A stretch of DNA of 27,479 nt from Haliangiales bacterium (GCA_035259575.1 DATFWE010000262.1:1-27479); one strand, 5' to 3'; shown: positions 1-23,415, counted from the first letter of the stretch. The notes: generated by a model from the sequence alone, not told the origin. A program made the numbers and translations.

Positions 1-2805
1 CTCGCCGCGGCCGCAGCGGACGCCGCCGCGCTCGCCGAGCTTCTGGGCGGCCCGGTCCCTGCCGAGCGCGTCGTCCGCCTCGGCGCCGGACCCTGTCGCG
101 CCGTGGTCCTGGACCCCACGCCGGAACGGCTCGCGCGCGCACGCGCGATCGTCGCCAAGGGCGAGGCGTGGATGGGCCGGAACGGTTTCTGGCACGCGCC
201 GCGGCCGCTCCTCGGCGAGGGCGGCAAGGTCGCGTTCGCGTTCCCCGGCGTCGACTCGTCATTTCAGCCGCGCGTCGACGACGTGGCGGCGCAGTTCGGC
301 CTACCGCTGCCGACGGGGACGGCTCCGGGGAGCCTGGAGGAGACCGGCGTCGGCATCGTGGGCGTGAACCGCCTCCTCCACCGGGTGCTGGTCGAGCTGG
401 GGGTCCGCCCCGACGTCCTCCTCGGTCACAGCATCGGCGAGTGGAGCGGCATGCTCGCCGCCGGGATCGTCGCCGAGAACGACGGCGACGCGTTCATCGC
501 GTCGGCCCGCCCGGGATCGCTCGAGGTCCCCGGGGTCGCGTTCGCCGCGGTGGGCTGCGGGATCGAGCGGGCCGCGGCCGCCATCGCCGGCCTGCCCGAC
601 GTCGCCGTGTCGCACGACAACTGCCCGCACCAGGTGATCCTGTGCGGGGCGGAGGCGAGCGTCGACGCGGCGCTGGCGCGCCTGCGCGCGGACGCCGTCC
701 TCGGACAGAAGCTGCCGTTCCGCTCCGGTTTCCATTCGCCGCTGTTCGCCGATTTTATGGGGCCGCACCGCGACAACTTCGCGCGCCTCGCGCTCGAGCC
801 GGCGCGCGTGCCGCTGTGGTCGGCGACGACGTGCGCCGAGTATCCCGCCGACGCGGCGGGCGTGCGCGCGCTCGCCCTTTCCCACCTCGTCGAGCCGGTC
901 CGTTTCCGCGAGCTCACCCTCGCGCTCCACGACCGCGGCGTGCGCGCGTTCGTGCAGGTCGGGACCGGGAGCCTTCCCGGCTTCATCGAGGACACGCTGC
1001 GCGGCCGCCCGCACGTCGCCGTGGCGGCGAACGTGCCCCAGCGGAGCGGCCTGGAGCAGCTCCAGCGCGTCCTGGCGACGCTGTTCGTCGAGGGCGCGGG
1101 CGGCGACGACGGCCGGGGCGTCGCGTTCGAGCGGCTCGCCGCCGCGCGGCCGGCGCGCGCCGCGACACCGCTGCGGCTGGGCGTGCCGCTGGTCCGCCTC
1201 ACCCGCCCGCTGTCGGTCGCGGCGGCGGCGCCCGAGGTGCCCGCCCATCCGGTGGCCGCCGCGTTCGCCGCATCGGTGGACTCGTTGCGGCGCGCCCAGG
1301 AGGACGTCCTCCTGCGCTTCGCCGCCCCGAAGCGGCCGCGGAGCGGCCCGCGCCAGGCGCGCTTCACCCGGCGCGTGTCGGTGGACGCGTTCCCCGAGCT
1401 CGCCGACCACACGTTCTTCCGCCAGCCCCCCGGCTGGACGACGATGACCGATCGCCACCCGGTCGTCCCGATGACCATGACCCTCGCCCTCATGATGGAG
1501 GCGGCGGCGGCGCTGGTCCCCGAGCGCACCGTCGTCGGCGTCGAGGACGTGCGCGCGTTCCGCTGGATCGCCGTGGGGGCGCCCATCGACGCCGAGCTGT
1601 CGCTCCGCTTCGACGGGAAGGATCGCGTGAGCGCGTCGATCGCCGGCTACGCCGAGGGCACGGTCGTCCTGGGCGAGCGCTATCCCGACGCGCCGCCGGC
1701 GTCCGCGGGGACGCTCGCCGCCGAGCGCCCCACCCCGAGCGACGCGGCGCGGCTCTACCGCGACCGGTGGATGTTCCACGGTCCCGCCTACCAAGGTGTC
1801 GTCGATCTCGGCCCCATGGGCGACGACGGCATCCGCGGCGTCCTCGAGGCGGGCGCGGCCAAGGGCGCGCTCCTCGACAACGCCGGCCAGCTGTTCGGCT
1901 ACTGGATCATGGTCACCAACGCCGTCGACCGGATGGCGATGCCGGTGCGGATCCGCCGCCTGCGCTTCTACGGCCCGCACCCGGCGCCGCGGGAGCGCCT
2001 CGACTGCCGCGTCGCGATCCGCAGGCAGGGCCCGCGCGAAGTGGTCGCCGATCTGGAGCTCGCGCGCGACGGGCGGGTGTGGTGCGCGATCGAGGAGTGG
2101 GAGGACCGCCGCTTCGACACCGACGCGCGCTTGTGGGACGTCTTTCGGTACCCGGAGCGTCACCTGCTCGCCGAGCCGCGCCCCGGCGGGTACGTCGTGT
2201 TCCACGACGTGTATCGCGCCGCGCCGACGCGCGAGCAGCTGTGCCGGCGTTTCCTGGGCGAGCGCGAGCGCGCCGCCTACGACGCGCAGGGGCCGCGCGG
2301 CCAGCGGGGCTGGCTGGCGGCGCGGATCGCCGGCAAGGACGCGGTGCGCGCGCACCTGTGGCGCGCCGGCCGGCGCGACGTGTTTCCCGTCGAGGTGGAG
2401 CTGGCGAACGAGCCGAACGGCCGGCCCGTCGTCGTCGCCCCGCGCGGCGCGGATCTGCGCATCTCGCTGGCGCACAAGGGCGACCTGGCGGTGGCGATGG
2501 TGGGCGAAGGGCGGGACGTGGGCATCGACGTGGAGCGGATCGAGCCGCGCGCGCCCGCGTTCGTCGCCGCGGCGTTCTCCGCCGAGGAGGCGGCGATGGC
2601 CGCCCCGGGCGAGGACCGCGAAGAGTGGTTGACCCGGCTGTGGACGGCGAAGGAGGCGGTGGGCAAGGCGCGCGGCACGGGTCTCGCGGGCAACCCGCGC
2701 CGGTGGCGGGCGACCGACCGCACCGGGGAGCGCATTCTCGTCGACGACGTCTGGGTGGAGACGCGCCGCGAGGGCGACCACATCATTGGCTGGAGCCACG
2801 CATGA
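1..2805 (+). CDS. C-terminal part of a type I PKS/FAS-like multidomain protein (5' partial, open to window edge): acyltransferase - dehydratase (double hotdog) - Sfp-type phosphopantetheinyl transferase
   Basis: No stop codon lies between position 1 and the first ATG (103) in this frame, so the gene likely continues upstream of the window. AT motifs are GKVAFAFPG, GHSIGE (nt ~424-441) and GFHSPLF. DH motifs are LADHTFF...P...LMMEAA (HxxxGxxxxP-like), HGPAYQGV (YGPxFQG-like) and LLDNAGQL. PPTase motifs in aa ~725-900 are GIDVERIE (GxDxE) and WTAKEAVGKARG (WxxKEAxxKxxG). Third-position GC is high throughout. Confidence 0.8.
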   Translation, partial: LAAAAADAAALAELLGGPVPAERVVRLGAGPCRAVVLDPTPERLARARAIVAKGEAWMGRNGFWHAPRPLLGEGGKVAFAFPGVDSSFQPRVDDVAAQFGLPLPTGTAPGSLEETGVGIVGVNRLLHRVLVELGVRPDVLLGHSIGEWSGMLAAGIVAENDGDAFIASARPGSLEVPGVAFAAVGCGIERAAAAIAGLPDVAVSHDNCPHQVILCGAEASVDAALARLRADAVLGQKLPFRSGFHSPLFADFMGPHRDNFARLALEPARVPLWSATTCAEYPADAAGVRALALSHLVEPVRFRELTLALHDRGVRAFVQVGTGSLPGFIEDTLRGRPHVAVAANVPQRSGLEQLQRVLATLFVEGAGGDDGRGVAFERLAAARPARAATPLRLGVPLVRLTRPLSVAAAAPEVPAHPVAAAFAASVDSLRRAQEDVLLRFAAPKRPRSGPRQARFTRRVSVDAFPELADHTFFRQPPGWTTMTDRHPVVPMTMTLALMMEAAAALVPERTVVGVEDVRAFRWIAVGAPIDAELSLRFDGKDRVSASIAGYAEGTVVLGERYPDAPPASAGTLAAERPTPSDAARLYRDRWMFHGPAYQGVVDLGPMGDDGIRGVLEAGAAKGALLDNAGQLFGYWIMVTNAVDRMAMPVRIRRLRFYGPHPAPRERLDCRVAIRRQGPREVVADLELARDGRVWCAIEEWEDRRFDTDARLWDVFRYPERHLLAEPRPGGYVVFHDVYRAAPTREQLCRRFLGERERAAYDAQGPRGQRGWLAARIAGKDAVRAHLWRAGRRDVFPVEVELANEPNGRPVVVAPRGADLRISLAHKGDLAVAMVGEGRDVGIDVERIEPRAPAFVAAAFSAEEAAMAAPGEDREEWLTRLWTAKEAVGKARGTGLAGNPRRWRATDRTGERILVDDVWVETRREGDHIIGWSHA

Positions 2806-3089
2806 GGGACGACGTCCTGGCCACGCTGCAGGCGATCCTGCGCGAGGTGATCGGCGAGGCGTGGGCCCAGGACGTCGAGATCACGCGCGCGACGTCGTTC
2901 AACCACGACCTCGAGCTGGAGAGCATCGAGTTCGTCGCGCTGGCGGAGAAGCTGCAAGCCGCCTACGGCCGCAGCGTCGATTTCACCGGTTGGCTGTCGG
3001 AGATGGAGCTCGACGAGATCATCGCCCTCCGCGTGGGGGACGTGGTGGAGTTCATCGAATCATGCCCGTCGTCCAGCAAAACGGCCTGA
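2802..3089 (+). CDS. Discrete acyl carrier protein (about 95 aa)
   Basis: Translation is MRDDVLATLQAILREV...FNHDLELESIEFVALAEKL. DLELESIEF matches the DLGxDSL phosphopantetheine-attachment motif with the Ser retained. The ATG at 2802 overlaps the upstream TGA (ATGA). This is the in-frame tail of track ORF 168..3089, whose upstream 880 codons are an Arg/Gly-rich artefact. Confidence 0.8.
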   Translation: MRDDVLATLQAILREVIGEAWAQDVEITRATSFNHDLELESIEFVALAEKLQAAYGRSVDFTGWLSEMELDEIIALRVGDVVEFIESCPSSSKTA

Positions 3090-3829
3090 GCTTCCACACG
3101 CAGGCCTTCGGCGCCGGTCCCCCGGCGGTGATGCTGCACGGCCTGCTCATCGGCAGCATGACGACGTGGTATTTCGGCGCGGCGCCGCGGCTGGCGCGCA
3201 GCCACCGGGTGCTCCTCTACGATCTGCGCGGGCACGGCAAGAGCGCCCGCGCGCGCCGGGGGTACGACCTGGCCACGATGGTGCGCGACCTCGACGCGCT
3301 CCTCGGCGACTTCACCGACGAGCCGGCGACGCTGGTGGGCCACAGCTACGGCGCGCTGACCGCGCTGCGCTTCGCCATGCTCCACCCCGAGCGGGTGGCG
3401 CGGCTCGTCCTCGTCGAGGCGCCGCTGCCGCCGCTCCGCCTGCCCGAGCTCGACCATTTCCTGCGCCGCCCGCGCGGCGAGATGGAGTCGGCGCTGCCCG
3501 ACGAGATCCGCCACGCGCTCCGTCGGGGCGGGCGCCAGGCGCTGCGTCTCGTGGATCAGCTCGCGTTCCTGGCCGCGGAGAGCAGCCTGCTCGCCGACCT
3601 CGACGCCGAGCCGGAGATCGGCGACGACGAGCTGGCCGCGCTCGCCTGCCCGCTGCTCGCGATCTACGGCAACCGCTCGAGCTGCCGGCCGGCGGGCGAT
3701 CGCCTGCGCCGGGTGGTGCCCGGCGCGCAGCTGGTCCTGCTTCCCGGCGGACACTTCCTGCCCACCGAGGCGGCCGAGGCGCTCACCCACGAGATCGTGC
3801 GCTTCTGCGCGGGGGACGTCGATGGCTGA
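3062..3829 (+). CDS. Alpha/beta-hydrolase fold protein (esterase/thioesterase/acyltransferase-like), paralog 1
   Basis: Starts MPVVQQNGLSFHTQAFGAGPPAVMLHGLL. The HG oxyanion region and the nucleophile elbow GHSYG (LVGHSYGALTA) are present. It is about 255 aa, typical of the family, and overlaps the ACP 3' end by 28 nt. Confidence 0.75.
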   Translation: MPVVQQNGLSFHTQAFGAGPPAVMLHGLLIGSMTTWYFGAAPRLARSHRVLLYDLRGHGKSARARRGYDLATMVRDLDALLGDFTDEPATLVGHSYGALTALRFAMLHPERVARLVLVEAPLPPLRLPELDHFLRRPRGEMESALPDEIRHALRRGGRQALRLVDQLAFLAAESSLLADLDAEPEIGDDELAALACPLLAIYGNRSSCRPAGDRLRRVVPGAQLVLLPGGHFLPTEAAEALTHEIVRFCAGDVDG

Positions 3830-4601
3830 GGTCGTGTGTCGCGGCGTGCGCCTGCACGTGCAGCGCCTGGGCGAGCCGGGGCGCGGGACGCCGGTCGTGT
3901 TCGTCCACGGCCTGGTGATGGACAACCTGTCGAGCTGGTATTTCACGCTCGCCAACCTGGCGGCGCGCACGACCGACGTGATCCTCTACGACCTGCGCGG
4001 CCACGGCCTCAGCGAGCGGCCGGCGACCGGTTACACGACCGAGGACATGGTGGCCGACCTGGCGGCGCTCCTCGACGAGCTGGGCGTGGACCAGCCGGTG
4101 GCGCTGGTCGGCAACAGCTTCGGCGGGATGGTCGCGCTCGCGTTCGCGCGCGCGCACCCCGATCGCGTCGATCGCATCGTGCTCGTCGACGCCCACGTCG
4201 GCGGCGACGGGTTCACAGGCAAGATGGTCGAGACGCTGAGCCTCGACGGCGACGAGCGCGACCGCAAGATCGCCGAGCATTTCGCGTCCTGGCTGGGGCG
4301 GCACAGCGCGCGCAAGCGCACGCGCCTCGCCGACGCCGCCGAGGGTCTCGTGCGGGGGACGACGCTCGTCGACGATCTCCGCCGGACGCCCCCGGTCACC
4401 GCCGAGGAGTTGACGCGCATCCGCGCGCCCGTCCTGGCGCTCTACGGCGAACGGTCCGACATCGTCCACGACTGCGCGCCGCTGCTCGCGTTCGTGCCCG
4501 AGTGCACGGTCGCGCTCGTCCCCGGCTGCACCCACTCGCTCCTGTGGGAGGCGACCGAGGAGGTCAAGCGGCGCACGCTCGCCTTCCTGGAGTCGCGCTG
4601 A
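3822..4601 (+). CDS. Alpha/beta-hydrolase fold protein, paralog 2 (tandem duplicate of the preceding gene)
   Basis: Starts MAEVVCRGVRLHVQRLGEPGRGTPVVFVHGL. The nucleophile elbow is GNSFGG. It shares the LYDLRGHG(K/L)S and AxDLxALLD blocks with paralog 1. Its ATG overlaps the upstream stop (ATGGCTGA, 8-nt overlap). Confidence 0.8.
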   Translation: MAEVVCRGVRLHVQRLGEPGRGTPVVFVHGLVMDNLSSWYFTLANLAARTTDVILYDLRGHGLSERPATGYTTEDMVADLAALLDELGVDQPVALVGNSFGGMVALAFARAHPDRVDRIVLVDAHVGGDGFTGKMVETLSLDGDERDRKIAEHFASWLGRHSARKRTRLADAAEGLVRGTTLVDDLRRTPPVTAEELTRIRAPVLALYGERSDIVHDCAPLLAFVPECTVALVPGCTHSLLWEATEEVKRRTLAFLESR

Positions 4602-4602
4602 C

Positions 4603-5757
4603 GTGGCGCGGATCCTGTTCGTGGTCCCGCCGCTCGTCGGCCACACCAACCCCACCGTGTCGGTGGCGGCGGCGCTCGGCGCGCTCGGACACGCGGTGGC
4701 GTGGGCGGCGCACCCCGACAAGGCGGCGCCGCTCCTGCCGCCCCGGGCGCGCATCCTGTCTCTGGGCGCTTGCGACGAGTCGGTGTTCGCGCCGATCTTA
4801 GAAAGGTCGCGACGGGTGCGCGGGCTCGAGGGGCTGCAGTTTCTGTGGCGGGACTTCCTGGTGCCGCTGGCGCGCGCGATGCTCCCCGCCGTCGACGTCG
4901 CGATCGCCGAGGCGCGTCCGGATCTCGTCGTCGTCGACCAGCAGGCGATCGGCGGCGCGCTGGCGGCGCGGCGCCGCGGCGTCCCCTGGGCGACGCTGTG
5001 CACGACCAGCGCCGAGCTCACCGATCCGCTCGCGGGGCTGCCCAAGGTCAAGGCGTGGACGATCGCCCAGCTCGCCGCGCTGCAGGAGGAGGCGGGGCTG
5101 CCGGTGGTGGAGCGCCCCGACCTGTCGCCGCGGCTGGTGGTGGTGCTGTCGACGCCGGCGCTCATCGGCGACGTGTCGGCGTTTCCGCCGCAGTGCCGCT
5201 TCGTCGGGCCGTCCATCCACGAAAGGCCCGACGCGACGCCGTTCCCGTGGGACGCGCTGGAGGAGCGCCCGCGCGTGCTCGTCTCGCTGGGGACGGTCAA
5301 CGCCGAACGGGGCGAGGCGTTCTATCGCACCGCGTTCGCGGCGCTCGCGGGCGCGCCGTTCCAGGTGATCCTCGTCGCGCCGGACGGCCTCGGCGGCGCG
5401 CCGCCGCCGGGGTTCCTCGTGCGCCCGCGCGTGCCGCAGCTCGCGCTCCTCCCCCACGTGCAGGCGGTGGTGAGCCACGGCGGGCACAACACGGTGTGCG
5501 AGGCGCTGGCGCACGGCATCCCGCTTGTGGTGACGCCGATCAAGGACGACCAGCCGGTGATCGCCGAGCAGGTCGTGCGGGCCGGCTGCGGGCTGCGCCT
5601 GCGCTTCGGGCGGCTGGAGCCGGCGGCGCTGCGCGCCGCGGTGGACCGCGTGCTGAACGAGCCGTCGTTCCGGGACAACGCGGCGCGCGTGGCTGCGTCG
5701 TTCGCCACGGCCGGCGGGGCGCGCGCCGCCGCGCGGCTGCTGGACGAGGTCGTATGA
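4603..5757 (+). CDS. GT1-family UDP-glycosyltransferase (MGT/UGT-like, OleD/CrtX-type)
   Basis: The N-terminus ILFVVPPLVGHTNPTVSVAAALGALGH is a typical GT1 acceptor-domain start. The C-terminal UDPGT signature is VSHGGHNTVCEALAHGIPLVVTPIKDDQPVIAEQV. A GTG start sits 1 nt after the upstream stop. Confidence 0.85.
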   Translation: MARILFVVPPLVGHTNPTVSVAAALGALGHAVAWAAHPDKAAPLLPPRARILSLGACDESVFAPILERSRRVRGLEGLQFLWRDFLVPLARAMLPAVDVAIAEARPDLVVVDQQAIGGALAARRRGVPWATLCTTSAELTDPLAGLPKVKAWTIAQLAALQEEAGLPVVERPDLSPRLVVVLSTPALIGDVSAFPPQCRFVGPSIHERPDATPFPWDALEERPRVLVSLGTVNAERGEAFYRTAFAALAGAPFQVILVAPDGLGGAPPPGFLVRPRVPQLALLPHVQAVVSHGGHNTVCEALAHGIPLVVTPIKDDQPVIAEQVVRAGCGLRLRFGRLEPAALRAAVDRVLNEPSFRDNAARVAASFATAGGARAAARLLDEVV

Positions 5758-7043
5758 CCCGGCCGCGCCACGCGTTCGTGGTGCGGGATCGGGCGACGAT
5801 CCCGCCGCTCGGAGCGCCCGCGGCGGAGTCGTGGCTGCTCGGCGGCCGGCTCCACGGCGAGATGCGGCGGCGCCTCGAGGCGTTCGGCCTCACGGTCGAG
5901 CGAGTCGACGGTGTGGAGGAGGCGGTCGCGCGCGCCGGCCGCTGCGCCGACGGGGCGATCGTGACGCACGATTCGGTGGCGTTCTCGCGCTCGGTCGTGC
6001 GCGGGCTCCTCGACGCGGTCGCGCGCGATCCGCGGCCGGCGCTGGCCGCGGCGCTGCCGCGCGCGCTGGCGACACGGCGGCTGTCGCACATCGGCGGCCT
6101 GGACGAGACGACCGTCGGCGGGACGCCCGCGTTCACCGCGCCGCTCTACGCCGTGCGCGCCGGCGCCGGCGTCGCCGCCGCCGAGCCCGTGCTGTTGCCG
6201 TATCGCGAGCTCGAGTGGAAGCTCCCCGTCCCCGTCGGCATGCTCGGCCGCAGCGAGGAGCCGTTCGGCGCGACCGACACCTACCTGGTGCGGGTGGACC
6301 ACTGGGGGCACATCCTGCACCTCAACGTCGCCGCGATGATCGCCGCGTGGTTCGAGCGTGGGCAGACGCTGGGCGGCAAGCTGTGGTACCTGTGGCGCGC
6401 GCTGTGCGGCTTCCCCTGGCGACGGGGGCGTCTCGCCGCGGCGATCCGGCGCGTGCACCGCACGGCGAAGGTCCACCACACGGCGCACGTCGAGCTGTCG
6501 GTGGTGGAGGCGGGCGCCGAGATCGGCCCGCACGCCGTGGTGAAGAACTCGTACGTGGCGCGCGGCGCGCGCATCGACGACGGGGCGCTGGTGAACGCGT
6601 GCGTCGTGGGCGAGGGGGCGTTCGTGGGATCGGCCGCCGCCGTGTTCAGCTCGGTGCTCTATCCCGGCGCGTTCGCGGCGCAGCACAAGATGCAGTTCTC
6701 GGTGCTGGGGGAGAGCTCGGTGGCGTTCACCGGGTCATATTTCTACGACACGAACTTCGAGCGCAACGTGCACGTGGCCCATCGCGGCCGCGTCGTCGAT
6801 TCGGGGGGGCGATTCATGTCCGTCTGTCTCGGCCCCTGGGCGCGCGTCGCGGGCGGCGTATGGATCGCGAGCGGGCGCGAGGTGCCGGCGCACGCGCTCA
6901 TCGTGCAGCCCCCCGATCGCGTGCTCCACCGCGTCGACGACGCGCTGGCCGCGAGCCGCATGACGACCGTGAAGGACCGCGGGCTCGTCGACGTGGGCCC
7001 GCTTCCGGCGGAGGCGGAGGAAGGACCGAAGCGGCTCGCGTGA
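5754..7043 (+). CDS. Hexapeptide-repeat (left-handed beta-helix) protein with an N-terminal domain of unknown function; possible sugar-nucleotidyltransferase-like or acyltransferase
   Basis: The ATG at 5754 overlaps the GT stop (ATGA). The C-terminal half has imperfect [LIV]-G-x-x-x-x repeats (VVKNSYVARGARIDDGALVNACVVGEGAFVGSAAAVFSSVL...). It is the in-frame tail of track ORF 4701..7043. The N-terminal 200 aa were not recognised. Confidence 0.55.
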   Translation: MTRPRHAFVVRDRATIPPLGAPAAESWLLGGRLHGEMRRRLEAFGLTVERVDGVEEAVARAGRCADGAIVTHDSVAFSRSVVRGLLDAVARDPRPALAAALPRALATRRLSHIGGLDETTVGGTPAFTAPLYAVRAGAGVAAAEPVLLPYRELEWKLPVPVGMLGRSEEPFGATDTYLVRVDHWGHILHLNVAAMIAAWFERGQTLGGKLWYLWRALCGFPWRRGRLAAAIRRVHRTAKVHHTAHVELSVVEAGAEIGPHAVVKNSYVARGARIDDGALVNACVVGEGAFVGSAAAVFSSVLYPGAFAAQHKMQFSVLGESSVAFTGSYFYDTNFERNVHVAHRGRVVDSGGRFMSVCLGPWARVAGGVWIASGREVPAHALIVQPPDRVLHRVDDALAASRMTTVKDRGLVDVGPLPAEAEEGPKRLA

Positions 7044-7436: not shown

Positions 7437-8984
7437 TTACGGCTCGCGCTGGGGTGAACGCTCCCCACCGCCTGGTAACGCGCTCCCCGGCGCGCGCCGC
7501 CAACGGTTCTCGCGCCACGGCGACTTCACGAGCTTCCCATCGATCGCCGACAGCGACGGCTTCGCCCCCAGCGCGGCCGCGGGGCAGGTCGAGGTCGCGC
7601 GGTACGCGAGCGCGGCCGCGAGGCGCCCTTCGCCCGGGTCCCCGAGCGCGTGGGTGAAATCGTCCGCCACCTGGCAGCCGGGCAGGCCCGTCGGCCCCGT
7701 GCCGCCCGGCGTGAACCCGTCGGCGTAGTCCCCGAACCCCTTGTCGTTCACCCCCTGGAACTCGATCGAGAAATACGTCGTCCCGCAATTGTCCTGCGGA
7801 TAGAACCCGTACGGCTTGCCGCACGTCGTCGAGCCGATCTGGATCACGTCCACGTCGATGCCGCGAAGGCTGTTCATCACCGATTCGCTCGCGGAACAGG
7901 TATCGAGGCCGGTCAGCACGAACACCCGCCCCAGGCCGAGCGAGGGCAGCGGCGCCCCGTTCGGCGCGGTGAACCCGAGCGACTTGTCCCAGAACGGCAT
8001 GGGCGCCAGCACTTCGCCGGTGACCGGGTCCCTCGTCGGGTACTTGTCGTTGAACTCGGTCCGCTCGAAGGTCTTGCCGGCCGTCCTCGCCCGACCCGCG
8101 ATCATGAAGGCGAGCTCGCTCGCGATGTCGAGGTAGCCGCCGCCGTTGTAGCGCATGTCGATCACGAGGTCGGTGACCCCGGCGGTCCGGAGCTGGCCGA
8201 TCGCGGCGATGAGCGCCGCCTCGGCGGTCGCGAGGTGATCGTTGAACGTCATGTAGCCGAGCGAGCCCGTCGCCGTCGATAGCACCTTGACGTTCTTGAC
8301 CGGCACGCTCATGACCTTCGCCGACGTCAGCACGACCGTGCGCGCCGTCGCCGCGCCGAGGTCCCGCAGCACGAACGTGTGGCTCTCGTTGAGCGCCGAC
8401 GGATAGAGCCCCTCGTTGAGCGTGCGGACGTCCGAACCGTTCTGTACGTCCACGCCGTCGATGGTCAGCACCTCCGCCCCGCGCGCCACGTTGGCCGCGG
8501 CTGCCGGAGTGCCGGGGTCGACGTCCGCCACTACCAGCTTGCGCGGCGGCCGAGCCGCGAGCAGCGCCCACTGCAGGCCGTAGCCCGCCTGCACGCCCGA
8601 CTGCGACAGCGCCTCCCAGTCCGCCGTCGCGTACGTGAAGTGGAACTGGTCCTTGGGCTTGCCCGACGCCGTGATCGCCGGGGTCTTGAGCGCCTCGAAG
8701 TAGGTGACGGCCGTCGCGTAGTCGCCCGGATTCACCGACGGCACCTCGCGGTACCACAGGTAGAGCTCGTCGGTCCAGGAGCGCAGCCAGCTCTTCTCGT
8801 CGTCGAGCGTGCCCTGCGTGTCGGGGTAGGGCCTGTTCGTCCCGGGGTCGATGCCGGTCCGCGGCGACGCGCACTTCGCGGCGAACATCGACGACGGTGG
8901 AAACGGTGAAGACGGACCCTCGTCGCCCCCGCACGCGGCCGCGGCCAGTGCCAGCCCGCACATTGCTCGTGACGCCATGACCAC
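7437..8984 (-). CDS. S41-family peptidase (C-terminal processing/tail-specific protease-like), lipoprotein
   Basis: Signal peptide with lipobox MASRAMCGLALAAAAC|GG. The S41 signature block is LVIDMRYNGGGYLDIASELA, upstream of a PDZ-like region. The start is a GTG at 8984 or, more likely, the ATG at 8978. Confidence 0.8.
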   Translation of the reverse strand: MVMASRAMCGLALAAAACGGDEGPSSPFPPSSMFAAKCASPRTGIDPGTNRPYPDTQGTLDDEKSWLRSWTDELYLWYREVPSVNPGDYATAVTYFEALKTPAITASGKPKDQFHFTYATADWEALSQSGVQAGYGLQWALLAARPPRKLVVADVDPGTPAAAANVARGAEVLTIDGVDVQNGSDVRTLNEGLYPSALNESHTFVLRDLGAATARTVVLTSAKVMSVPVKNVKVLSTATGSLGYMTFNDHLATAEAALIAAIGQLRTAGVTDLVIDMRYNGGGYLDIASELAFMIAGRARTAGKTFERTEFNDKYPTRDPVTGEVLAPMPFWDKSLGFTAPNGAPLPSLGLGRVFVLTGLDTCSASESVMNSLRGIDVDVIQIGSTTCGKPYGFYPQDNCGTTYFSIEFQGVNDKGFGDYADGFTPGGTGPTGLPGCQVADDFTHALGDPGEGRLAAALAYRATSTCPAAALGAKPSLSAIDGKLVKSPWRENRWRRAPGSALPGGGERSPQREP

Positions 8985-9089
8985 GTTCGCTCGACCATGC
9001 TGGCATCGCCGGCGCGCGCCTGCAAGTGCGCGCGATCACGCCGGCGCGAGGAGCGCACGCGCCGCGTGGGAATCGATCGTCATCCGCCG

Positions 9090-9206
9090 CTAGGGCCGCA
9101 TCGCGATGACGAGGCCGAGCAAGGCGAGCAACACCAGAACGATGGTGAGCGAGGCGTGCTTCTCCCAGAAACGGCGCGGTCCGCGGTCGTGCTTGTCTGC
9201 GTGCAT
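9090..9206 (-). CDS. Small single-pass membrane protein (38 aa), not present in the supplied ORF track
   Basis: The reverse complement reads ...GGAGGAGACCATC ATG CAC GCA GAC AAG..., giving MHADKHDRGPRRFWEKHASLTIVLVLLALLGLVIAMRP*. There is a strong Shine-Dalgarno 6 nt upstream. GC3 is about 87%. It has a charged N-terminus followed by a hydrophobic helix and lies 105 nt upstream of the S41 peptidase gene on the same strand. Confidence 0.4.
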   Translation of the reverse strand: MHADKHDRGPRRFWEKHASLTIVLVLLALLGLVIAMRP

Positions 9207-9278
9207 GATGGTCTCCTCCGTGGCGGCCGCCGCGCGACCGCCGAAAACAGCGTTTCCGTGTGCTGGATGCGTGTCGGC

Positions 9279-9602
9279 TCAGACCGACGGAGGAGGAGCG
9301 CGGGCGTGGAGCGTGCGGGCGGCGGGCTCCCCGGCGAGACCCGCGCACGCCGGCCGCGCCGGCGCCGGCCGCACGCCGCGATCGGCGTCGCCGCGGGCCA
9401 CGCTCGGCGGCAGGATCGCCGCCTGGCGGCCGGGCGCCGAGCGGCGGGCCGCGGCATGGTCGCGAGCGGGCGCGACCACCGCGTCGCCGCGATCGCCGCG
9501 CGCCGATACGCCCGCCCGGCCTGGTCCCGCGCCGAGCGGCTCCCACCCCGTCGCGAGCGACGCGACGAGACAGATGCCGAGGAGCCACGTCCGGACGCGC
9601 AT
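9279..9602 (-). CDS. Possible small secreted protein (107 aa), low-complexity Ala/Arg/Pro-rich after the signal peptide
   Basis: The N-terminus MRVRTWLLGICLVASLATGW is a convincing signal peptide and GC3 is high. The remainder is low complexity, so this may instead be a GC-frame artefact. It lies divergent to the oxygenase gene. Confidence 0.3.
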   Translation of the reverse strand: MRVRTWLLGICLVASLATGWEPLGAGPGRAGVSARGDRGDAVVAPARDHAAARRSAPGRQAAILPPSVARGDADRGVRPAPARPACAGLAGEPAARTLHARAPPPSV

Positions 9603-9675
9603 GGGGGATCGTCACCGTAGCAGCTTCCCGCGCGCCGGCAATCGACTTTGGCGGTCCGTGATAGGGTCTCCAGCG

Positions 9676-10266
9676 GTGCGCAGCAACCCCGCGACGGCGA
9701 TCGTCTGCCTGCCCCTCCTCGACGCGGGGGAGTGCGACGCATGGCTCGCGCATCTCCAGGGGTGCGACTGGCAGGACGCGCGCGTCGCCTCGCCGGCCTA
9801 CGGCTCGTCGGTCGAGCGGGTCATCCGCAGCACGGCGACGACCGAGTGCCGCGACCCCGAGCGCATGGCGCGCATCGTCGACTGGATCGCCGAGCTCAAC
9901 CGCGGGCTGTTCCGCTTCGACCTCGACGGTCCGTCGCCGTCCGACCCGCTGCTGGCGATGCGCTACCGCGAGGGCGACCACTTCGACTGGCACATCGACA
10001 ACTCGATCGAAGCGGTCGCCACGCGCAAGCTGAGCTTCACGCTCCAGCTCACCCCGCCGGACGAATACGACGGCGGCGACCTCGAGTTCGCCATGTACGC
10101 CGCGAGCTACGGCGGCACCGCCCCGTTCGCCGGCTACACCCGCGACGTGCGCCGGCGCGGCGCGATCACCGTGTTTCCCGCGTTCCACCTCCACCGCGTG
10201 AGCCCCGTCACCCGCGGCACACGCCTCGCCTTGGTCGGCTGGCTTCACGGCCCGCGGTTCCGATGA
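9676..10266 (+). CDS. Fe(II)/2-oxoglutarate-dependent oxygenase (PKHD/PiuC-YbiX-like hydroxylase family)
   Basis: HxD...H facial triad: DHFDWHIDNS and FHLHRVSPVTRGTRLALVGW. A GTG start at 9676 is preferred over the in-frame ATG at 9601, because codons 9601-9675 have AT-rich third positions. Confidence 0.7.
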   Translation: MRSNPATAIVCLPLLDAGECDAWLAHLQGCDWQDARVASPAYGSSVERVIRSTATTECRDPERMARIVDWIAELNRGLFRFDLDGPSPSDPLLAMRYREGDHFDWHIDNSIEAVATRKLSFTLQLTPPDEYDGGDLEFAMYAASYGGTAPFAGYTRDVRRRGAITVFPAFHLHRVSPVTRGTRLALVGWLHGPRFR

Positions 10267-11003
10267 TCGTGGACTCGCGCGAACGCTTCAGCGCCACCGC
10301 CGACGCCTATCGGCGCTATCGGCCCGGTTACCCCGCCCCGCTCCTCGACTGGATCGCGGCCACCACCGGCGCGCCGCCCGACGCCCGCGTGGCCGACATC
10401 GGCTGCGGCACCGGCATCTCCAGCCGCTTTCTGGCGACGCGCGGCTTCCGCGTCGTGGGCGTCGAGCCGAACGCGGACATGCTCGCGCACGCCCGCGCGG
10501 CCGGCGGCGGGCCCACCTACGTCCGGGGGGAGGCCGCGCGCACCGGCCTCCCCGACGCCTCGGTCGACCTCGTCACCGCGGCCCAGGCGTTCCACTGGTT
10601 CGAGCTCGAGCCGACGCTCGTCGAGATCCGGCGGATCGCCGTGCCCGGAGCGTGGATGTGCGCATTCTGGAACGTCCGCGTCGCGACCCCGTTCAACGAC
10701 GAGTACGAGCGCATCCTCCACGCTTACTCCAGCGAGTACGCGCCGCTGTCCGACACCCTCGATCCGCGCGACGCGATCCGCGCGGCCGTCGCCGGAACGG
10801 TGTGCACCGAGATGCACAACGACGAGGCGCTGGCGTGGGACGCGGTCCTGGGGCGCGCGCGTTCCGCGTCGTACGTCGCGCACGGCGTGGCCGATCTCGC
10901 CGGTTTCGAACGGGAGCTGCGGGCGGCCTACGAGCGCCACGCGCGGCCCGACGGCACGCTCGTGTGGGCGCTGCGCACCGTGGCGGCGGCGTGGCCGGCG
11001 TGA
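10263..11003 (+). CDS. Class I SAM-dependent methyltransferase
   Basis: Motif I is VADIGCGTGISSRFLATRGFRVVGVEPNADML, with an acidic residue at the end of beta-2 and motif II DLVTAAQAFHWF. The ATG overlaps the oxygenase stop (ATGA). Confidence 0.8.
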   Translation: MIVDSRERFSATADAYRRYRPGYPAPLLDWIAATTGAPPDARVADIGCGTGISSRFLATRGFRVVGVEPNADMLAHARAAGGGPTYVRGEAARTGLPDASVDLVTAAQAFHWFELEPTLVEIRRIAVPGAWMCAFWNVRVATPFNDEYERILHAYSSEYAPLSDTLDPRDAIRAAVAGTVCTEMHNDEALAWDAVLGRARSASYVAHGVADLAGFERELRAAYERHARPDGTLVWALRTVAAAWPA

Positions 11004-12469
11004 TGGCGCCCAGGCGCTACGCCATCGCGCGCCTCGTCGGGCTGGCCGTCCATTTCGTCGAGGTCCTGGCGCTGACGCGCCTGTTCCCCGACGTACGGCT
11101 CGCCCTGGCGCTGGGGATGGCCGGCGTCTGCCGCCTCGTCGGCGCGATCGCGGGGACGCGCCCGGCCCGCGCGACGGGCGCGGTCGCGCTCGCCTCCCTG
11201 GCGGTGTGCCTGGTCGTCGTGCGCCTCTACGGCGGACCGCCCGGCGCGCTCGACGTCTACGCCGTGGTGTGCGCGGCGCGCCTCGCGTTGCAGGTCGGCG
11301 GCCGTCTGGACGAGATCGAGGCCGGCCTGGCGCCCGGCTCGCTCCTCGTGGTCGCGCTCGCCACCGCGGCGGCGTCGCTCCACACCCTCGTCGTCGTCCA
11401 TCTCCTCGCCGGCGCCTTCGCCGTCGCGCTGACGTGGCCGCGCGCGGTCGATCCCGCGTCGGTCGCCGAGGCCGCCGTGGGGCGACTGGCGCCGACGGTC
11501 GGCGCGGTCGCGTGGCTCGTCGGTCAGGGGATGGTCGCGGGCGCGGGCGCCGGCGTCGACGTCGTGGCCGCCGTCGTCTCCCTGCCCGCGTTCCTCGCGG
11601 CCGGCCAGCTCGCCGGCAACCGCCTCCGCCGCGCCGCCGCCGACCGGCACGGCGATCTCTCGGTGACCGCGCTCTACACCAGCGGCGCCTGGAGCTGGGG
11701 GCGCCTCCCGGGCGCCGAGCTCCTCGCCAGCCGCGAGGCGAAGGCCGCGTTCGACGGCACCAACCTCGTCCTGGCGGTGACCAGTCTGTTCGCGTCGGGA
11801 CCGTCGCTGCGCTGCTCGCTCATCCAGCGGCACCTCATGATCGATCGCCTGCTCGCCGACGCCGGCGCCAAGCACGTCCTCGAGCTCGCCGCCGGCCTGT
11901 CGCGGCGGGGCGTGGCGGTCACCGCCGACCCGACCGTGCGCTACACCGAGGTCGACCGCGCCCCGGTGATCGCCCACAAACGCCGCCTGCTCGCGCGCAG
12001 CGACGCCGGCCGCGCGGCGCTCGCCCGGCCCAACCTCCGCCTCGTCGGGGCGGATGTCGTCGACGCCCCGCTGGGCGATCTCGCCGACGCGCCCGACGGC
12101 GCGCCGCTGTTCGTCATCGCCGAGGGTCTGCTCATGTACCTCGACGCGCCGGCGCAGCGCTCGCTGTGGCGCCGCATCCGGGCGCTGTTCGACCGCCGCC
12201 CCGGCGTCCTGGTGTTCGATCTCGTGCCCCTCGCCGAGCACGCCCGCGTGGGCCGCGCCGGCCGGGCGCTCCGCTGGCTGTTCCGGCGCGCCACCCGCGG
12301 CGCCCGCTTCGCGCGGGATGCGCGCACCCGCCACGACATCGCCGCCGAGCTCCGGGACCTCGGCTTCGCCGTCGAGCTCCTCGAGCCGAGCGCGGTGATC
12401 GATCGCTGGCGGCTGCCCCACGGCGACGTCCGCACCCAGCAGCTGTTGTTCGTGTGCCGCGTGGGCTGA
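11003..12469 (+). CDS. Fusion protein: N-terminal polytopic membrane domain (~230 aa, 5-6 predicted TM helices) + C-terminal TcmP / leucine-carboxyl-methyltransferase-family SAM-dependent O-methyltransferase domain
   Basis: Hydrophobic N-terminal segments include LVGLAVHFVEVLALT, LALALGMAGVCRLVGAI, AVALASLAVCLVVV, LLVVALATAAASLHTLVVVHLLAGAFAVAL and VAAVVSLPAFLAAG. C-terminal motifs are VLELAAGLSRRG (motif I), YTEVDRAPV and the LCM/TcmP hallmark FVIAEGLLMYL. The start overlaps the upstream stop (TGATG). Confidence 0.7.
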   Translation: MAPRRYAIARLVGLAVHFVEVLALTRLFPDVRLALALGMAGVCRLVGAIAGTRPARATGAVALASLAVCLVVVRLYGGPPGALDVYAVVCAARLALQVGGRLDEIEAGLAPGSLLVVALATAAASLHTLVVVHLLAGAFAVALTWPRAVDPASVAEAAVGRLAPTVGAVAWLVGQGMVAGAGAGVDVVAAVVSLPAFLAAGQLAGNRLRRAAADRHGDLSVTALYTSGAWSWGRLPGAELLASREAKAAFDGTNLVLAVTSLFASGPSLRCSLIQRHLMIDRLLADAGAKHVLELAAGLSRRGVAVTADPTVRYTEVDRAPVIAHKRRLLARSDAGRAALARPNLRLVGADVVDAPLGDLADAPDGAPLFVIAEGLLMYLDAPAQRSLWRRIRALFDRRPGVLVFDLVPLAEHARVGRAGRALRWLFRRATRGARFARDARTRHDIAAELRDLGFAVELLEPSAVIDRWRLPHGDVRTQQLLFVCRVG

Positions 12470-12486
12470 CGGGGTAAGCTTTCCCC

Positions 12487-13374
12487 GTGCCCGACGCACC
12501 GCGCTGGTTCCGAGACGCGCTCGCCGCGCCGCGGTCCGAGCACACGATCCATGTGGCGGGCGCCGGCATCCACTACGTTCGCTGGGGCGACGGCGGCAAG
12601 CCGGGGCTCGTCCTGGTCCACGGCGGCGCCGCGCACGCCGAGTGGTGGTCGTTCCTGGCGCCGCTGCTCACGCGCCAGTACGACGTCGTGGCGCTGGACC
12701 TGAGCGGCCACGGCGACAGCGACCGCCGCGAGGAGTATCCGCGTCGCGTGTGGGCCGACGAGGTTCTGGCCGTCATCGCCGACGCCCACTTCCCCGGCCC
12801 GCCGGTGCTGATCGGCCACAGCATGGGCGGGCTGGTGAGCATCGTCGCCGCGTCCGTCTACGGCGACGAGCTCGCCGGCGCGATCATCGTCGACGCGCCG
12901 GTGCGCAAGCCCGACCCGGAGAGCGAGGAGGGCAACTACGGGCGGAGCTTCCGCCACCCCAAGGTCTACCCGACGCTCGACGAGGCGGCGGCGCGGTTCC
13001 GCCTGATCCCGCCCCAGCCCGTCGAGGCCGCGTACATCGTCGACCACATCGCGCGCGCCTCCCTGCGCCGCGTCGACGGCGGCTGGACGTGGAAGTTCGA
13101 CCCGCGCGTGTTCATCAAGTTCTCCAAGGAGAAGATGAGCGACTACCTGTCGAGCACGCGCTGCCGGGTGGCGCTCCTGCGCGGCGAGAAGAGCATCGTC
13201 GTGCCCCCCGAGACGGGGACCTACATGTACGAGCTCCTCAGCCGCACCTCGCCCCTGGTCGAGATCCCCGAGGCGCACCACCACCTCATCCTCGATCAGC
13301 CGCTGGCGTTCATCGCGGCGGTGCGGGCGATCCTCGCCGACTGGGAGCACTCGATCCCGCGCGGGCCGGCGTGA
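12487..13374 (+). CDS. Alpha/beta-hydrolase fold protein, paralog 3
   Basis: PGLVLVHGGAAHAEWW, ALDLSGHGDSD and nucleophile elbow IGHSMGG. A GTG start is given, and codon bias supports coding from 12487. An alternative start is the GTG at 12553. Confidence 0.75.
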   Translation: MPDAPRWFRDALAAPRSEHTIHVAGAGIHYVRWGDGGKPGLVLVHGGAAHAEWWSFLAPLLTRQYDVVALDLSGHGDSDRREEYPRRVWADEVLAVIADAHFPGPPVLIGHSMGGLVSIVAASVYGDELAGAIIVDAPVRKPDPESEEGNYGRSFRHPKVYPTLDEAAARFRLIPPQPVEAAYIVDHIARASLRRVDGGWTWKFDPRVFIKFSKEKMSDYLSSTRCRVALLRGEKSIVVPPETGTYMYELLSRTSPLVEIPEAHHHLILDQPLAFIAAVRAILADWEHSIPRGPA

Positions 13375-14143
13375 GCGTGGCGACCAGCGTGCCGCGGTCG
13401 AACACCCACAGGTCCCCGGGGCGGCCCTGGGTCCACGTCTCGTTGTGGGTGAGCGGCGCGGTGGCGACGATCGCGACCCGATCGCGCGCCGTGGTCACCC
13501 GCGAGAAGTCGATGCGGACGTCCTCGTCGGCGAGCTGGGCCACGCCGAACGGCGCCTTGCGGATGATGTACCACAGCTTCGTGGAGCAGCGCGCGTAGAG
13601 GTGGCGGCCGTCGCCGAGGAGGAAGTTGAACGTGCCGTCGGCGCCGAGCTCGGCCCCGATGTCGGCGACCGCTTCCCACAGGTCGCTCGGCCGGCGCGGG
13701 TAGCCGGCGAACCGGCGATCCAGGCGCGCGAGCAGGCAGCAGAACGCGTGCTCGCTGTCGGTCTGCCCGATCGGGCGAAAGCGCCCGAGCCGCCGCCGCC
13801 GGACGCGGCGCAGCGTGCCGTTGTGGGCGAACACCCAGGTGCGACCCCACAGCTCGCGCGCGAACGGATGGGTGTTGGCGAGCGTGGTCTTCCCGCGCGT
13901 CCGGCGCCGCACGTGCCCCACCGCGAGCATCGTCTTGATCGGGTGCTCGCCGAGGAAGCTCGCGAGCGGGCTGCGCGCGGCCGGCGCCGGCTCGAGGAAC
14001 ACGCGCGCCGCGCGCCCCTCGTAAAACGCCAGCCCCCAGCCGTCGCCGTGCGGTCCGGTCTTGCCGCCGCGGAGCCGGAGACCCGTGAACGAGAACACGA
14101 TGTCGGTCGGCACGTTGCATTCCATCCCGAGGAGCTCACACAT
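13310..14143 (-). CDS. Class II (Ntn-type) glutamine amidotransferase, YafJ-like
   Basis: N-terminal Met-Cys nucleophile MCELLGM, with GxxGxxHGDGWG and HxRxAT-like blocks (GHVRRRTRGKTTLANTHPF). The 3' end overlaps the convergent hydrolase by 65 nt. Confidence 0.75.
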   Translation of the reverse strand: MCELLGMECNVPTDIVFSFTGLRLRGGKTGPHGDGWGLAFYEGRAARVFLEPAPAARSPLASFLGEHPIKTMLAVGHVRRRTRGKTTLANTHPFARELWGRTWVFAHNGTLRRVRRRRLGRFRPIGQTDSEHAFCCLLARLDRRFAGYPRRPSDLWEAVADIGAELGADGTFNFLLGDGRHLYARCSTKLWYIIRKAPFGVAQLADEDVRIDFSRVTTARDRVAIVATAPLTHNETWTQGRPGDLWVFDRGTLVATLTPARAGSSAPSRRGSPAPPR

Positions 14144-14174
14144 CGCGGCGACCGACGATTATACTGGCGGCGCG

Positions 14175-15968
14175 ATGCGCGGCACCGTGCTCGATGCATT
14201 GGGGCGCGCCGGCGATGCCGGCGACGGCGGCGTGGCCGCCGAGCTGGGCGTGCGGGGCGATCCGCTCCTGCGCGCGCGCGCCCGCCGCCAGCTCCACCGC
14301 GCGGTGTCGGTGGCGCGCGCCCGCACCGCCCTCACCGACGAGGTCCACGTCGTCCGCGTCGCCTACCTCATCGCCGCCGGCGCGCCGCCCGAGGCGCCCG
14401 ATGACGCCCCCGCGGTCGCCGAGGCCTACGCGCGCGTCCGCCGCGGCGCGCGGCGGCGGCTGCGCCCGTGGTGGCTGACCGGCGCGCTGGTCCTCGTCGC
14501 CGTCGGCGCCTTCGGCTACGCCCGGGGGTGGTGGCCGTCGCGCGGCGCGTACCGCCCCGCCGCCGCGCCCATCCGCGCCGCCGAGGCCGGGTCCACCGCG
14601 GCGGCGGCGTTCTGGCCGATGGCGGCGGCGCTCACCGAGTACGTGTCCGTCCTCGACGCGTGGGCGCGGGCCCGCCGCGCGGGCGACTCCGCCGGGACCG
14701 CGCGCGCCGACGAGCTCCTTGGGATGGCCCGCGCCGCCGTCATGCGCACCGCCGCCGGGCTGGGCGGCGCCACGCGCCGCTTCGACGAGCTTCTGACCGC
14801 GGCGCGCGAGGCGGCGGCCGCCGCGCCGTGGGCGCTGGAGGATGCCGCCGCCAAGCTCTACGCCGCCGTGGCCGCCGCCGACGACGAGGCGCCCGCCTAC
14901 GGCGTCTACTTCGACGCCGACGTCGTCATGGGGCAGAAGGGGCAGGAGGTCCTCGTCTGGATCTACGCCGTCGATCGCGTCGCGCGCTACGCCGCCGGGG
15001 CGACCGAGATCCGGGCCATCCAAGTGCGCCGGCTCGACAACCTCAACATGGTGCCCGACCTGGCCGGGCTCACCCGCCCCCACCTGCGCGAGGCGATCGT
15101 GCTGCTCGAGGTGCTCGAGCAGCTCATGGCGACCCTGTTCCTGCCCGCGCTCGCCGACGGCGCCTCCCTGCGCGTGGTGGATCCGCCGTCAGGCGCGAGC
15201 TTCGCCGAGCTCGCCGCGGTGGAGGCGCGCGCCGGCGAGATCGTGCGCGCCGAGCTGGGCGCCGCCCTCGGCGCGGACCGCGCCGCCGCCGCCAAGCTAG
15301 GCGAGTCGCTGACGCGGCGACGCGAGCTGTTCGCGCGCCTCGGCCGGGCGCTCGCCCCGCGCGGAATCTCGCTCGCGACGCCGCGCGGCCTGCGCCTGCC
15401 GGAGCAGGCGCGCTCCGAGCTCGACGCGATCCTGCCCCCGATCGAGCTCATGGAGATCGACGCCCTCGAGGCGGAGATCGGCGGCGAGCCCGCATCCAAG
15501 GCGTTCGCCGCGGCGATGGGAGCCATGGTCGACACCGTCGAACGGCACGAGGTGCAGCACCGGCTCGATCACGAGGCGGGCGGCCTGCCGCCGGTGGCGG
15601 CGCTGACCGCGCTCGGGGCCGACGACCGGGCGCGCGCCGAGCTCAGCGCCTACCTCGCCGAGATCCATCGCGACCCGCGCACGCCGCGGATCGGCCTCAC
15701 CCTCCTCATGAGGTTCGTGTTCGATTCCCGCCGTTGGGGCACGTCGGAATCGCTCGCGGGGATCGTCCTCCTCGAAGGGCTGGGCCGCGAGCTCGCCATC
15801 GGCGCGACCCCCATCGCCAAGAAAGGCGAGATCGACCGCGCCGCCGCCGCCAGGCTCTACCTCGCGGTGACCGACGCCCAGCCGGACCGGCTGCGCGACG
15901 CGGCGGGCCGGCTGTGGGCCAAGCTGTTCGGCTCGCCCCTGCCTCCGCTCGTGCGGGCGCAGCCCTGA
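14175..15968 (+). CDS. Ala-rich hypothetical membrane-anchored protein with an HExxH motif
   Basis: Tail of track ORF 14061..15968. The ATG at 14175 is the first start after the convergent GATase gene. There is a single predicted [20 protein letters not shown], and the motif [10 protein letters not shown] near the C-terminal domain. No other family signature was recognised. Confidence 0.5.
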
Positions 15969-23414: not shown

Positions 23415-23415
23415 C

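Follow-up and report, generated by a model that had tools for sequence, protein, structure and literature searches.

The 27,479-nucleotide contig DATFWE010000262.1 of a Haliangiales bacterium (assembly GCA_035259575.1), which we analysed over its whole length and refer to as the window, carries at positions 9,676–13,374 four closely spaced genes on one strand, here called g1 to g4. They encode a 2-oxoglutarate (2OG)-Fe(II) oxygenase of 196 amino acids (aa; g1, 9676–10266, +), a class-I S-adenosylmethionine (SAM) methyltransferase of 246 aa (g2, 10263–11003, +), a 488-aa protein in which a membrane domain is fused to an LCM/TcmP-type methyltransferase (g3, 11003–12469, +) and an alpha/beta hydrolase of 295 aa (g4, 12487–13374, +). 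A first-pass annotation, made from the sequence alone, had read them as an operon that might tailor the product of a polyketide synthase (PKS) and glycosyltransferase (GT) cassette 2.6 kb upstream; that cassette is present, its last gene, LbH, ending at 7043.

Genes were called by the frame periodicity of GC content at third codon positions (GC3), raw lists of open reading frames (ORFs) being useless at ~74% GC, and were identified with Pfam. Across g1–g4, GC3 is 0.94–0.97 against 0.48–0.57 at second positions (GC2); we start g3 at ATG 11003, whereas NCBI starts it at GTG 10991. Pairwise ratios of nonsynonymous to synonymous substitution (dN/dS) against relatives are 0.18–0.32 for the four genes, rough as absolute values since the extreme GC3 compresses dS, and indicate that all four are real, constrained genes. 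Read from the sequence, the junctions are −4, −1 and +17 nt for g1/g2, g2/g3 and g3/g4: g1 and g2 overlap in ATGA (ATG 10263, TGA 10264–10266), g2 and g3 overlap in GTGATGG (TGA 11001–11003, ATG 11003), and g4 begins with a GTG at 12487 after a 17-nt spacer from the g3 stop at 12469. Sequence and GC3 periodicity bear out the four coupled same-strand genes of the first-pass annotation, with its overlaps ATGA at 10263 and TGATG at 11003 and its g4 start 18 nt on, and Pfam agrees with its domain assignments for all four. Short stop/start overlaps are routine in compact high-GC operons and are unremarkable alone.

A putative promoter element, GTGATAGGGT (9658–9667, +), includes a −10-like hexamer, TAGGGT (9662–9667), 8 nt 5′ of the g1 GTG. 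The same element stands 8 nt 5′ of the g1 TTG in a related locus, L086 (GCA_040961345.1, JBFONC010000656.1), and its counterpart in another, L001, is GTGGTAGGTT, 9 nt 5′ of the g3 ATG; a −10-like hexamer so near the first start codon suggests a leaderless transcript. Scans of 8900–14200 returned no consensus sigma-70 promoter and no intrinsic terminator, including inside the four-gene region, both scans being uninformative at 74% GC. Given the tight junctions, the lack of a terminator-like site inside the region and the single upstream promoter-like element, these co-directional, translationally coupled genes are able to form one transcript, and are presumably co-transcribed.

Domain content of the four genes

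The C-terminal part of g3 (11651–12469, +) is an LCM/TcmP-type (COG3315) SAM-dependent O-methyltransferase: PF04072 matches residues 264–392 at 47.1 bits against a gathering cut-off of 22.3, the invariant motifs ELAAGLS.RG and AEGL..YL are present, and the family alignment shows no variation at E294, G298, D318 and E374. In an AlphaFold2 (AF2) model the Rossmann core has a predicted local distance difference test score (pLDDT) of 75–95, and Foldseek matches the catalytic domain to PPM1, LCMT-1, ML2640c, Rv0731c and TYW4 at probability 1.00, with target-normalised TM scores of 0.5–0.64. Pfam family, SAM-binding motifs and predicted fold are thus those of the LCM/TcmP family (PF04072, COG3315; PPM1/LCMT-1, TYW4, TcmP and ML2640c/Rv0731c), but sequence similarity to its solved members is very low; phmmer of the methyltransferase domain against the PDB found no match, and an alignment profile reached Rv0731c and ML2640c weakly (profile E 9e-7). 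The model of the mycobacterial subfamily, TIGR00027, scores 40.3 bits, under its cut-off of 93.55, and JGI labels g3 homologues ‘O-methyltransferase involved in polyketide biosynthesis’. Carboxyl groups are methylated by PPM1/LCMT-1 and TYW4, the characterised enzymes among the nearest fold matches, and also by TcmP, which shares the Pfam family; by analogy the target of g3 is most likely a carboxyl group, so that g3 would convert a membrane-partitioned product into its methyl ester.

The N-terminal part of g3 (11003–11650, +) is an orphan membrane domain of ~8 helices, found in no characterised member of the LCM/TcmP family and delineated by hydropathy and AF2. Residues 1–216 are hydrophobic by hydropathy analysis and show GC coding periodicity; the model, built on an alignment of nine sequences, has eight helices over residues 3–216 (pLDDT 65–83) and a disordered linker at residues 212–226, followed by the confident Rossmann domain. 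The even number of helices in the model places the methyltransferase domain on the predicted cytoplasmic side. The domain has a dN/dS of 0.28 against L086 and no match in Pfam, and phmmer, run exhaustively over 1.84 billion representative proteins, gave four credible matches only (P0004, which is g3 itself, P0003, P0303 and P0006), with one further weak, low-complexity match; judged by these searches it is confined to its own clade.

The oxygenase g1 matches PF13640 (2OG-FeII_Oxy_3) at 53.6 bits, and both its iron triad (the HxD...H residues H106, D108 and H173) and its 2OG-binding arginine (R183) are invariant in 24 aligned sequences; triad, arginine and domain are those of the 2OG-Fe(II) oxygenase superfamily, within which sequence comparison places g1 in a short P4H/PKHD-like clade. 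Homologues at 66%, 56%, 55%, 48% and 45% identity are all solitary, neighbouring a Zn-ribbon protein, a PAS-kinase with a response regulator, an M14 peptidase or a HisKA/sigma-54 regulator pair. Distant g1-type oxygenases (45–56% identity) repeatedly adjoin two-component genes (L090 6001–6594, L091 6001–6618, L179 648–1235), either with HisKA and a sigma-54 response regulator upstream or with PAS-HisKA and a response regulator downstream; these distant oxygenases may have a regulatory or oxygen-sensing rather than a biosynthetic role.

For g2 the match is PF08241 (Methyltransf_11) at 69.1 bits, with motif I present as GCGTG. Its family has more than 3,000 members at 50–68% identity across phyla, and three homologues at 60–67% identity stand alone in unrelated contexts. 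The hydrolase g4 matches PF00561/PF12697 at 81/80 bits and has the GHSMGG motif and the C-terminal His; at its 3′ end it shares 65 nt (13310–13374) with the convergent GATase_4 gene. We confirmed 365 g4 relatives in metagenomes. Upstream sequence of 900 nt or more is available for 53 of their loci; g3 precedes g4 in 2 of these, both of the L001 lineage, and g4 stands alone in the other 51. No partner gene recurs, an SDR gene lying 3′ of g4 in 6 of the 35 long loci. From these distributions, g1, g2 and g4 are each an independently conserved stand-alone gene family.

The upstream PKS cluster and its methyltransferase

Positions 1–7043 (+) hold the 3′ part of a Pfa-like PKS cluster, assigned with Pfam and NCBIfam: PKS-B (AT-DH-PPTase, cut by the contig end), an acyl carrier protein (ACP), the alpha/beta hydrolases hydA and hydB, an MGT/EryCIII-type GT and a 429-aa LbH protein, whose end lies 3.96 kb upstream of g3. 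To place g3, a profile of its catalytic domain was run against one genome per species, giving 79 loci, and these were searched by tblastn with window proteins and full-length cluster proteins, a distance of 10 kb serving as the criterion of linkage. Cluster genes (PKS-A, PKS-B, ACP, hydrolase or GT) lie within that distance of the methyltransferase in 41 of the 56 loci (73%) with a close homologue (at least 41% identity), against 0 of 23 with a remote one (28–35% identity). By gene, the 56 close loci have PKS-A in 34, PKS-B in 36, GT in 19, ACP in 16, a hydrolase in 17, the methyltransferase MT23 in 11 and LbH in 7; the cluster proteins of the window are 33–69% identical to the cluster genes of these loci. 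The hosts of the linked cluster belong to at least four phyla, Myxococcota, Acidobacteriota, Actinomycetota (Pseudonocardiaceae, Mycobacteriales) and Planctomycetota. Orthologues in the clade of g3 thus adjoin the PKS cluster across genomes and the same cluster stands beside g3 here, as for an accessory methyltransferase of the cluster, for whose product g3 is a putative methylating enzyme.

Loci with the cluster include L007, L014, L015, L019, L021, L025, L026, L028, L032, L033, L046, L054 and L055, and in L007, L015, L019, L021, L025, L033 and L054 the LCM methyltransferase is directly adjacent and coupled to it. The members are PKS-A, PKS-B (KS-AT-DH-PPTase), a discrete ACP, one or two alpha/beta hydrolases, an MGT-type GT, MT23 and/or LbH, and the LCM methyltransferase. 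In the canonical order of L007 these run from the KR end of the preceding gene through KS-AT-DH-PPTase, ACP, hydA, hydB, GT and MT23 (622 aa) to the LCM methyltransferase, all translationally coupled; L007 and L025 show the full architecture, with PKS-A as KS-AT-ACP-KR. Other loci have a second arrangement, with the methyltransferase directly 5′ of a PKS-A that bears an N-terminal PfaD-like NMO/ER domain. In L054 the order is GT-LCM-LbH, with an LbH 68% identical to that of the window and no MT23, and this gene content makes L054 the nearest model of how the cluster in the window was arranged ancestrally.

The MT23 protein of L007 (8076–9944, 622 aa, Methyltransf_23) has predicted transmembrane (TM) segments at its N-terminus, middle and C-terminus, and also a zinc-ribbon-like motif, CPICG...CGGCGH. 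Going by these predicted segments, membrane association in canonical clusters would therefore reside in MT23 and not in the LCM methyltransferase. We considered this protein, and other families, as the origin of the N-terminal domain of g3 and found no similarity; nor has g2 any blastp similarity to MT23, and with L054, the closest variant, having neither MT23 nor g2, we rejected g2 as a displaced copy of or substitute for MT23.

A PfaA-type KS (TIGR02813, E 4e-129), an AcpT/HetI-like PPTase, a PfaD-like ER in some PKS-A, neighbouring genes that include WS/DGAT, GDSL lipase, Hydrolase_4, PMT_2 and sulfotransferase genes, and a sulfotransferase::LCM fusion (P0059) together suggest that the cluster product is a lipid-like polyketide, glycosylated and methylated. 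The fusion, of 611 aa and on a 49-kb JGI contig, joins the same LCM-type methyltransferase to Sulfotransfer_3, and in L039 (3494–4546) the methyltransferase is followed by Sulfotransfer_3, which suggests that other lineages may decorate products of this class by sulfation instead. The cluster would seem to resemble the antiSMASH ‘hglE-KS’ or heterocyst-glycolipid-like class; ‘hglE-KS’ is a genome-mining label that is put on mostly orphan clusters. Pfa-like ‘secondary lipid’ PKS clusters (PMC3098273) share with it the PfaA-type KS, the PfaD-like ER (in some loci), the HetI/AcpT-like PPTase, a glycosyltransferase and lipid-handling genes. However, the combination of PKS-A (KS-AT-ACP-KR) and PKS-B (KS-AT-DH-PPTase) with ACP, hydrolases, GT and LCM/MT23 has no counterpart among the types in the text of Shulse & Allen 2011 (PMC3098273), and our literature search found no paper describing this PKS architecture or its product.

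Distribution of the four genes across lineages

All four genes, with g4 intact, occur together on the window contig only, and the full-length g3 fusion occurs in three other lineages only. A sister lineage (L004–L006, L086–L088), 82–84% identical, has the order PKS...LbH...S41(−)...g1-g2-g3 followed by a stump of g4: in L086/L087 g4 ends after residue 132, residues 133–295 being gone, and nucleotide alignment identifies a 510-bp deletion, corresponding to window 12881–13390, that takes the catalytic Asp and His of g4 and clips the 3′ end of GATase_4. A cousin lineage (L001–L003), with a g3 64% identical, has neither g1 nor g2; there g3 and g4 (82% identical in L001) stand alone behind a homologue of a 107-aa minus-strand ORF of the window, in the order LbH...sm107(−)-g3-g4-GATase4... 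in L001, and the flanks on either side are syntenic, with identities of 86% for LbH, 80% for GATase_4 and 83% for the Band 7 (SPFH) gene. The third fusion lineage, P0006, is 49% identical and has no hydrolase 3′ of the fusion gene.

Beyond these lineages, none of the 56 other genomes has g1, g2 or the N-terminal domain of g3 near its homologue of the g3 catalytic domain, and the apparent g4 matches in the 56 loci are 26–37% matches to the cluster's own hydrolases. The first-pass annotation had proposed gene-neighbourhood conservation as a check on a shared pathway; related genomes do not keep the four genes together. We find g1 and g2 only in the window and the ~83%-identical sister lineage, where they fill exactly the space between the conserved promoter-like element and g3, and since both are solitary everywhere else, their insertion in the common ancestor of the two is the simpler reading.

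Four minus-strand ORFs separate the LbH end at 7043 from g1: a gene of 122 aa and unknown function, an S41 peptidase, a 41-aa hydrophobic peptide ORF (9080–9205, −) preceded by GGAGGAGACC, and the 107-aa ORF (9279–9602, −), which has a signal-peptide-like N-terminus and is divergent from g1 across a 73-nt gap; neither of the last two has a Pfam match. The 107-aa ORF, whose 42% identical homologue occupies the same position in L001 and L002, gives the promoter region its conserved left boundary. Where the cousin retains complete genes for TrkA_C, a Na+/H+ exchanger and TerC (L001 1328–3439, −), the sister lineage is left with a TrkA_C fragment of 62 aa (L086 9311–9499, −); on sequence comparison, this difference speaks for repeated rearrangement and gene decay between the PKS cluster and g3.

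Downstream of g4 come the convergent GATase_4, an SPFH/Band 7-domain gene, a large lactonase-like protein, a pirin and an SDR, and later NeuB/cytidylyltransferase/capsule-type genes. With its assumed TTG start at 14061, a 635-aa gene of unknown function would overlap the 5′ end of GATase_4 by 83 nt (14061–14143); because the L001 orthologue is 598 aa long, the true start is probably further downstream. A separate group of sugar-related genes at 22743–27469 (an RraA-like aldolase, a NeuB-family synthase, a cytidylyltransferase, a histidine phosphatase and a weak Capsule_synth match on the minus strand) looks like nonulosonic-acid or capsule biosynthesis and seems to have no connection with the four-gene region.

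Origin and possible role of the four-gene region

We consider it probable that g1–g4 form a recent, lineage-specific mosaic operon around g3, a displaced tailoring methyltransferase of the Pfa-like PKS-GT cluster, now ~4 kb away from it and joined to a membrane domain. The methyltransferase gene would, in this Haliangiales lineage, have been parted from its cluster by ~4 kb of unrelated minus-strand genes and would have gained the N-terminal orphan domain of ~8 transmembrane helices; g4 would have joined on the 3′ side in an ancestor shared by three related lineages, one of which later lost half of it. A lipid-like acyl chain, built by the PKS on the ACP, would be released by a hydrolase and glycosylated by the GT, and g3, held at the cytoplasmic membrane face by its helical domain, would O-methylate the membrane-partitioned product. 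Nothing ties the substrates of g1, g2 or g4 to the PKS product. The action on that product proposed in the first-pass annotation therefore holds up for g3, through the linkage of its clade to the cluster, and does not for g1, g2 and g4, which are solitary elsewhere.

Several observations weigh against a mosaic built around a cluster methyltransferase. As our literature search gave no product for this type of PKS cluster, both the substrate of g3 and its carboxyl-methylation chemistry are argued by analogy, and the nearest solved relatives of g3, ML2640c and Rv0731c, have no known substrate themselves. Of the close methyltransferase homologues, 15 of 56 have no PKS gene within 10 kb, some of them on short contigs. 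Deletion of g1 and g2 in L001, instead of their insertion elsewhere, may account for the present distribution. Overlapping stop and start codons, an intact g1-g2-g3 in two ~83%-identical lineages and the dN/dS values would all fit a coupling that is real, if young.

The fullest use of those last observations is a single dedicated and newly assembled pathway, in which the four enzymes would act in sequence on the PKS/GT product, hydroxylating it, methylating it twice and hydrolysing an ester or thioester. The coupling is tight, the catalytic motifs are all intact, all four genes are under purifying selection, and g1-g2-g3 are kept together beside the same PKS cluster in the sister lineage; moreover, canonical clusters carry a second methyltransferase, MT23, that is absent from the window variant and for which g2 could in principle substitute. 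However, L054 manages with neither of them, so that no substitute is needed, g4 is destroyed in the sister lineage, and the cousin lineage keeps g3-g4 without g1-g2. None of g1, g2 and g4 accompanies the methyltransferase in any of the 56 other genomes, while their families hold 50–80% identity in unrelated contexts, indicating independent conserved functions, and a hydrolase is found in just 2 of 20 same-strand downstream neighbours of the methyltransferase. Those two are of different families, and we rejected methyltransferase-then-hydrolase as a recurring motif. We therefore regard such a pathway as unlikely; with g1-g2 missing in L001, g4 half-deleted in L086/L087 and g1, g2 and g4 solitary elsewhere, the single four-gene tailoring system of the first-pass annotation finds no support in the comparison. 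A bolder proposal keeps the link to the cluster and holds that the g3 helices are a new lipid-binding or lipid-presenting module through which the methyltransferase receives a PKS glycolipid embedded in the membrane, and that the recruited g1 (hydroxylase), g2 (second methyltransferase) and g4 (esterase) diversify this glycolipid in the Haliangiales lineage; if so, the operon would be a biosynthetic sub-cluster caught at its birth, but we think this distinctly improbable.

Two further accounts would detach g3 or g1 from the cluster. PME-1 and BioH are alpha/beta hydrolases, and g3 might have left the PKS pathway to methylate another membrane-associated lipid or protein carboxyl group, with g4 as the methylesterase of a reversible pair like LCMT-1/PME-1 or BioC/BioH. 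The likeness lies in a carboxyl-type methyltransferase (g3) or a class-I methyltransferase (g2) beside an alpha/beta hydrolase (g4), with BioC and BioH among the weak NCBIfam matches; g3 stands apart from the cluster with an orphan 8-TM domain and evolves faster than its neighbours (64% identity in L001 against 80–86% for the flanking genes), the g3-g4 junction is kept in two lineages, and PPM1/LCMT-1 and TYW4, among the nearest fold matches, are carboxyl methyltransferases. Yet the PKS cluster is still adjacent in both lineages with a visible left flank (the window and L086), no other LCM methyltransferase copy is seen in the cluster, which would then lose its hallmark methyltransferase, and g4 is both dispensable in the sister lineage and mostly solitary elsewhere. 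Scores fall far under the equivalog cut-offs, at 41.9–42.4 bits for g2 against 185 and 342 for BioC and at 49.4 for g4 against 207 for BioH, so that we rejected a BioC/BioH-like g2/g4 pair; as the pairing of methyltransferase and hydrolase is not conserved, the resemblance is one of analogy only, and a reversible g3/g4 pair is very unlikely.

Still less can be said for a PiuC/YbiX-type hydroxylase acting in iron or siderophore uptake, which would set the operon apart from secondary metabolism and which the first-pass annotation had named as a possible identity of g1. The top NCBIfam and PDB matches of g1 are indeed PKHD-type/PiuC proteins, and it shares with them the double-stranded beta-helix core and the HxD...H and Arg residues, but the nearest PDB entries, PiuC, are reached only at E~1e-8, and g1 scores 75.9, 53.8, 53.6 and 36.8 bits against equivalog cut-offs of 143, 180, 336 and 399. 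It is also ~30 aa shorter, and the PiuC C-terminal domain PKHD_C (PF18331) is absent from g1 and its close homologues, appearing only in distant matches (P0180–P0182). PiuC/YbiX genes pair with TonB-dependent receptors (PMC12004947); there is no such receptor or iron-uptake gene in the window or adjoining the g1 homologues. We rejected the PiuC/YbiX identity on these grounds and give the uptake role almost no credence.

On the reading we favour, of a mosaic operon around a displaced cluster methyltransferase, the four genes do not merit an entry as a new system: where a high-GC genome is compact, translationally coupled genes of mosaic origin can pass for a pathway. What the locus does offer is the LCM/TcmP-type methyltransferase clade as a reliable marker of a widespread Pfa-like PKS-ACP-hydrolase-GT cluster, which gives researchers on natural products and lipids a defined family to mine, with a methylated glycolipid as the predicted product. 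The g3 fusion itself would be a small natural experiment, in which a tailoring enzyme has been relocated to the membrane in one narrow lineage.

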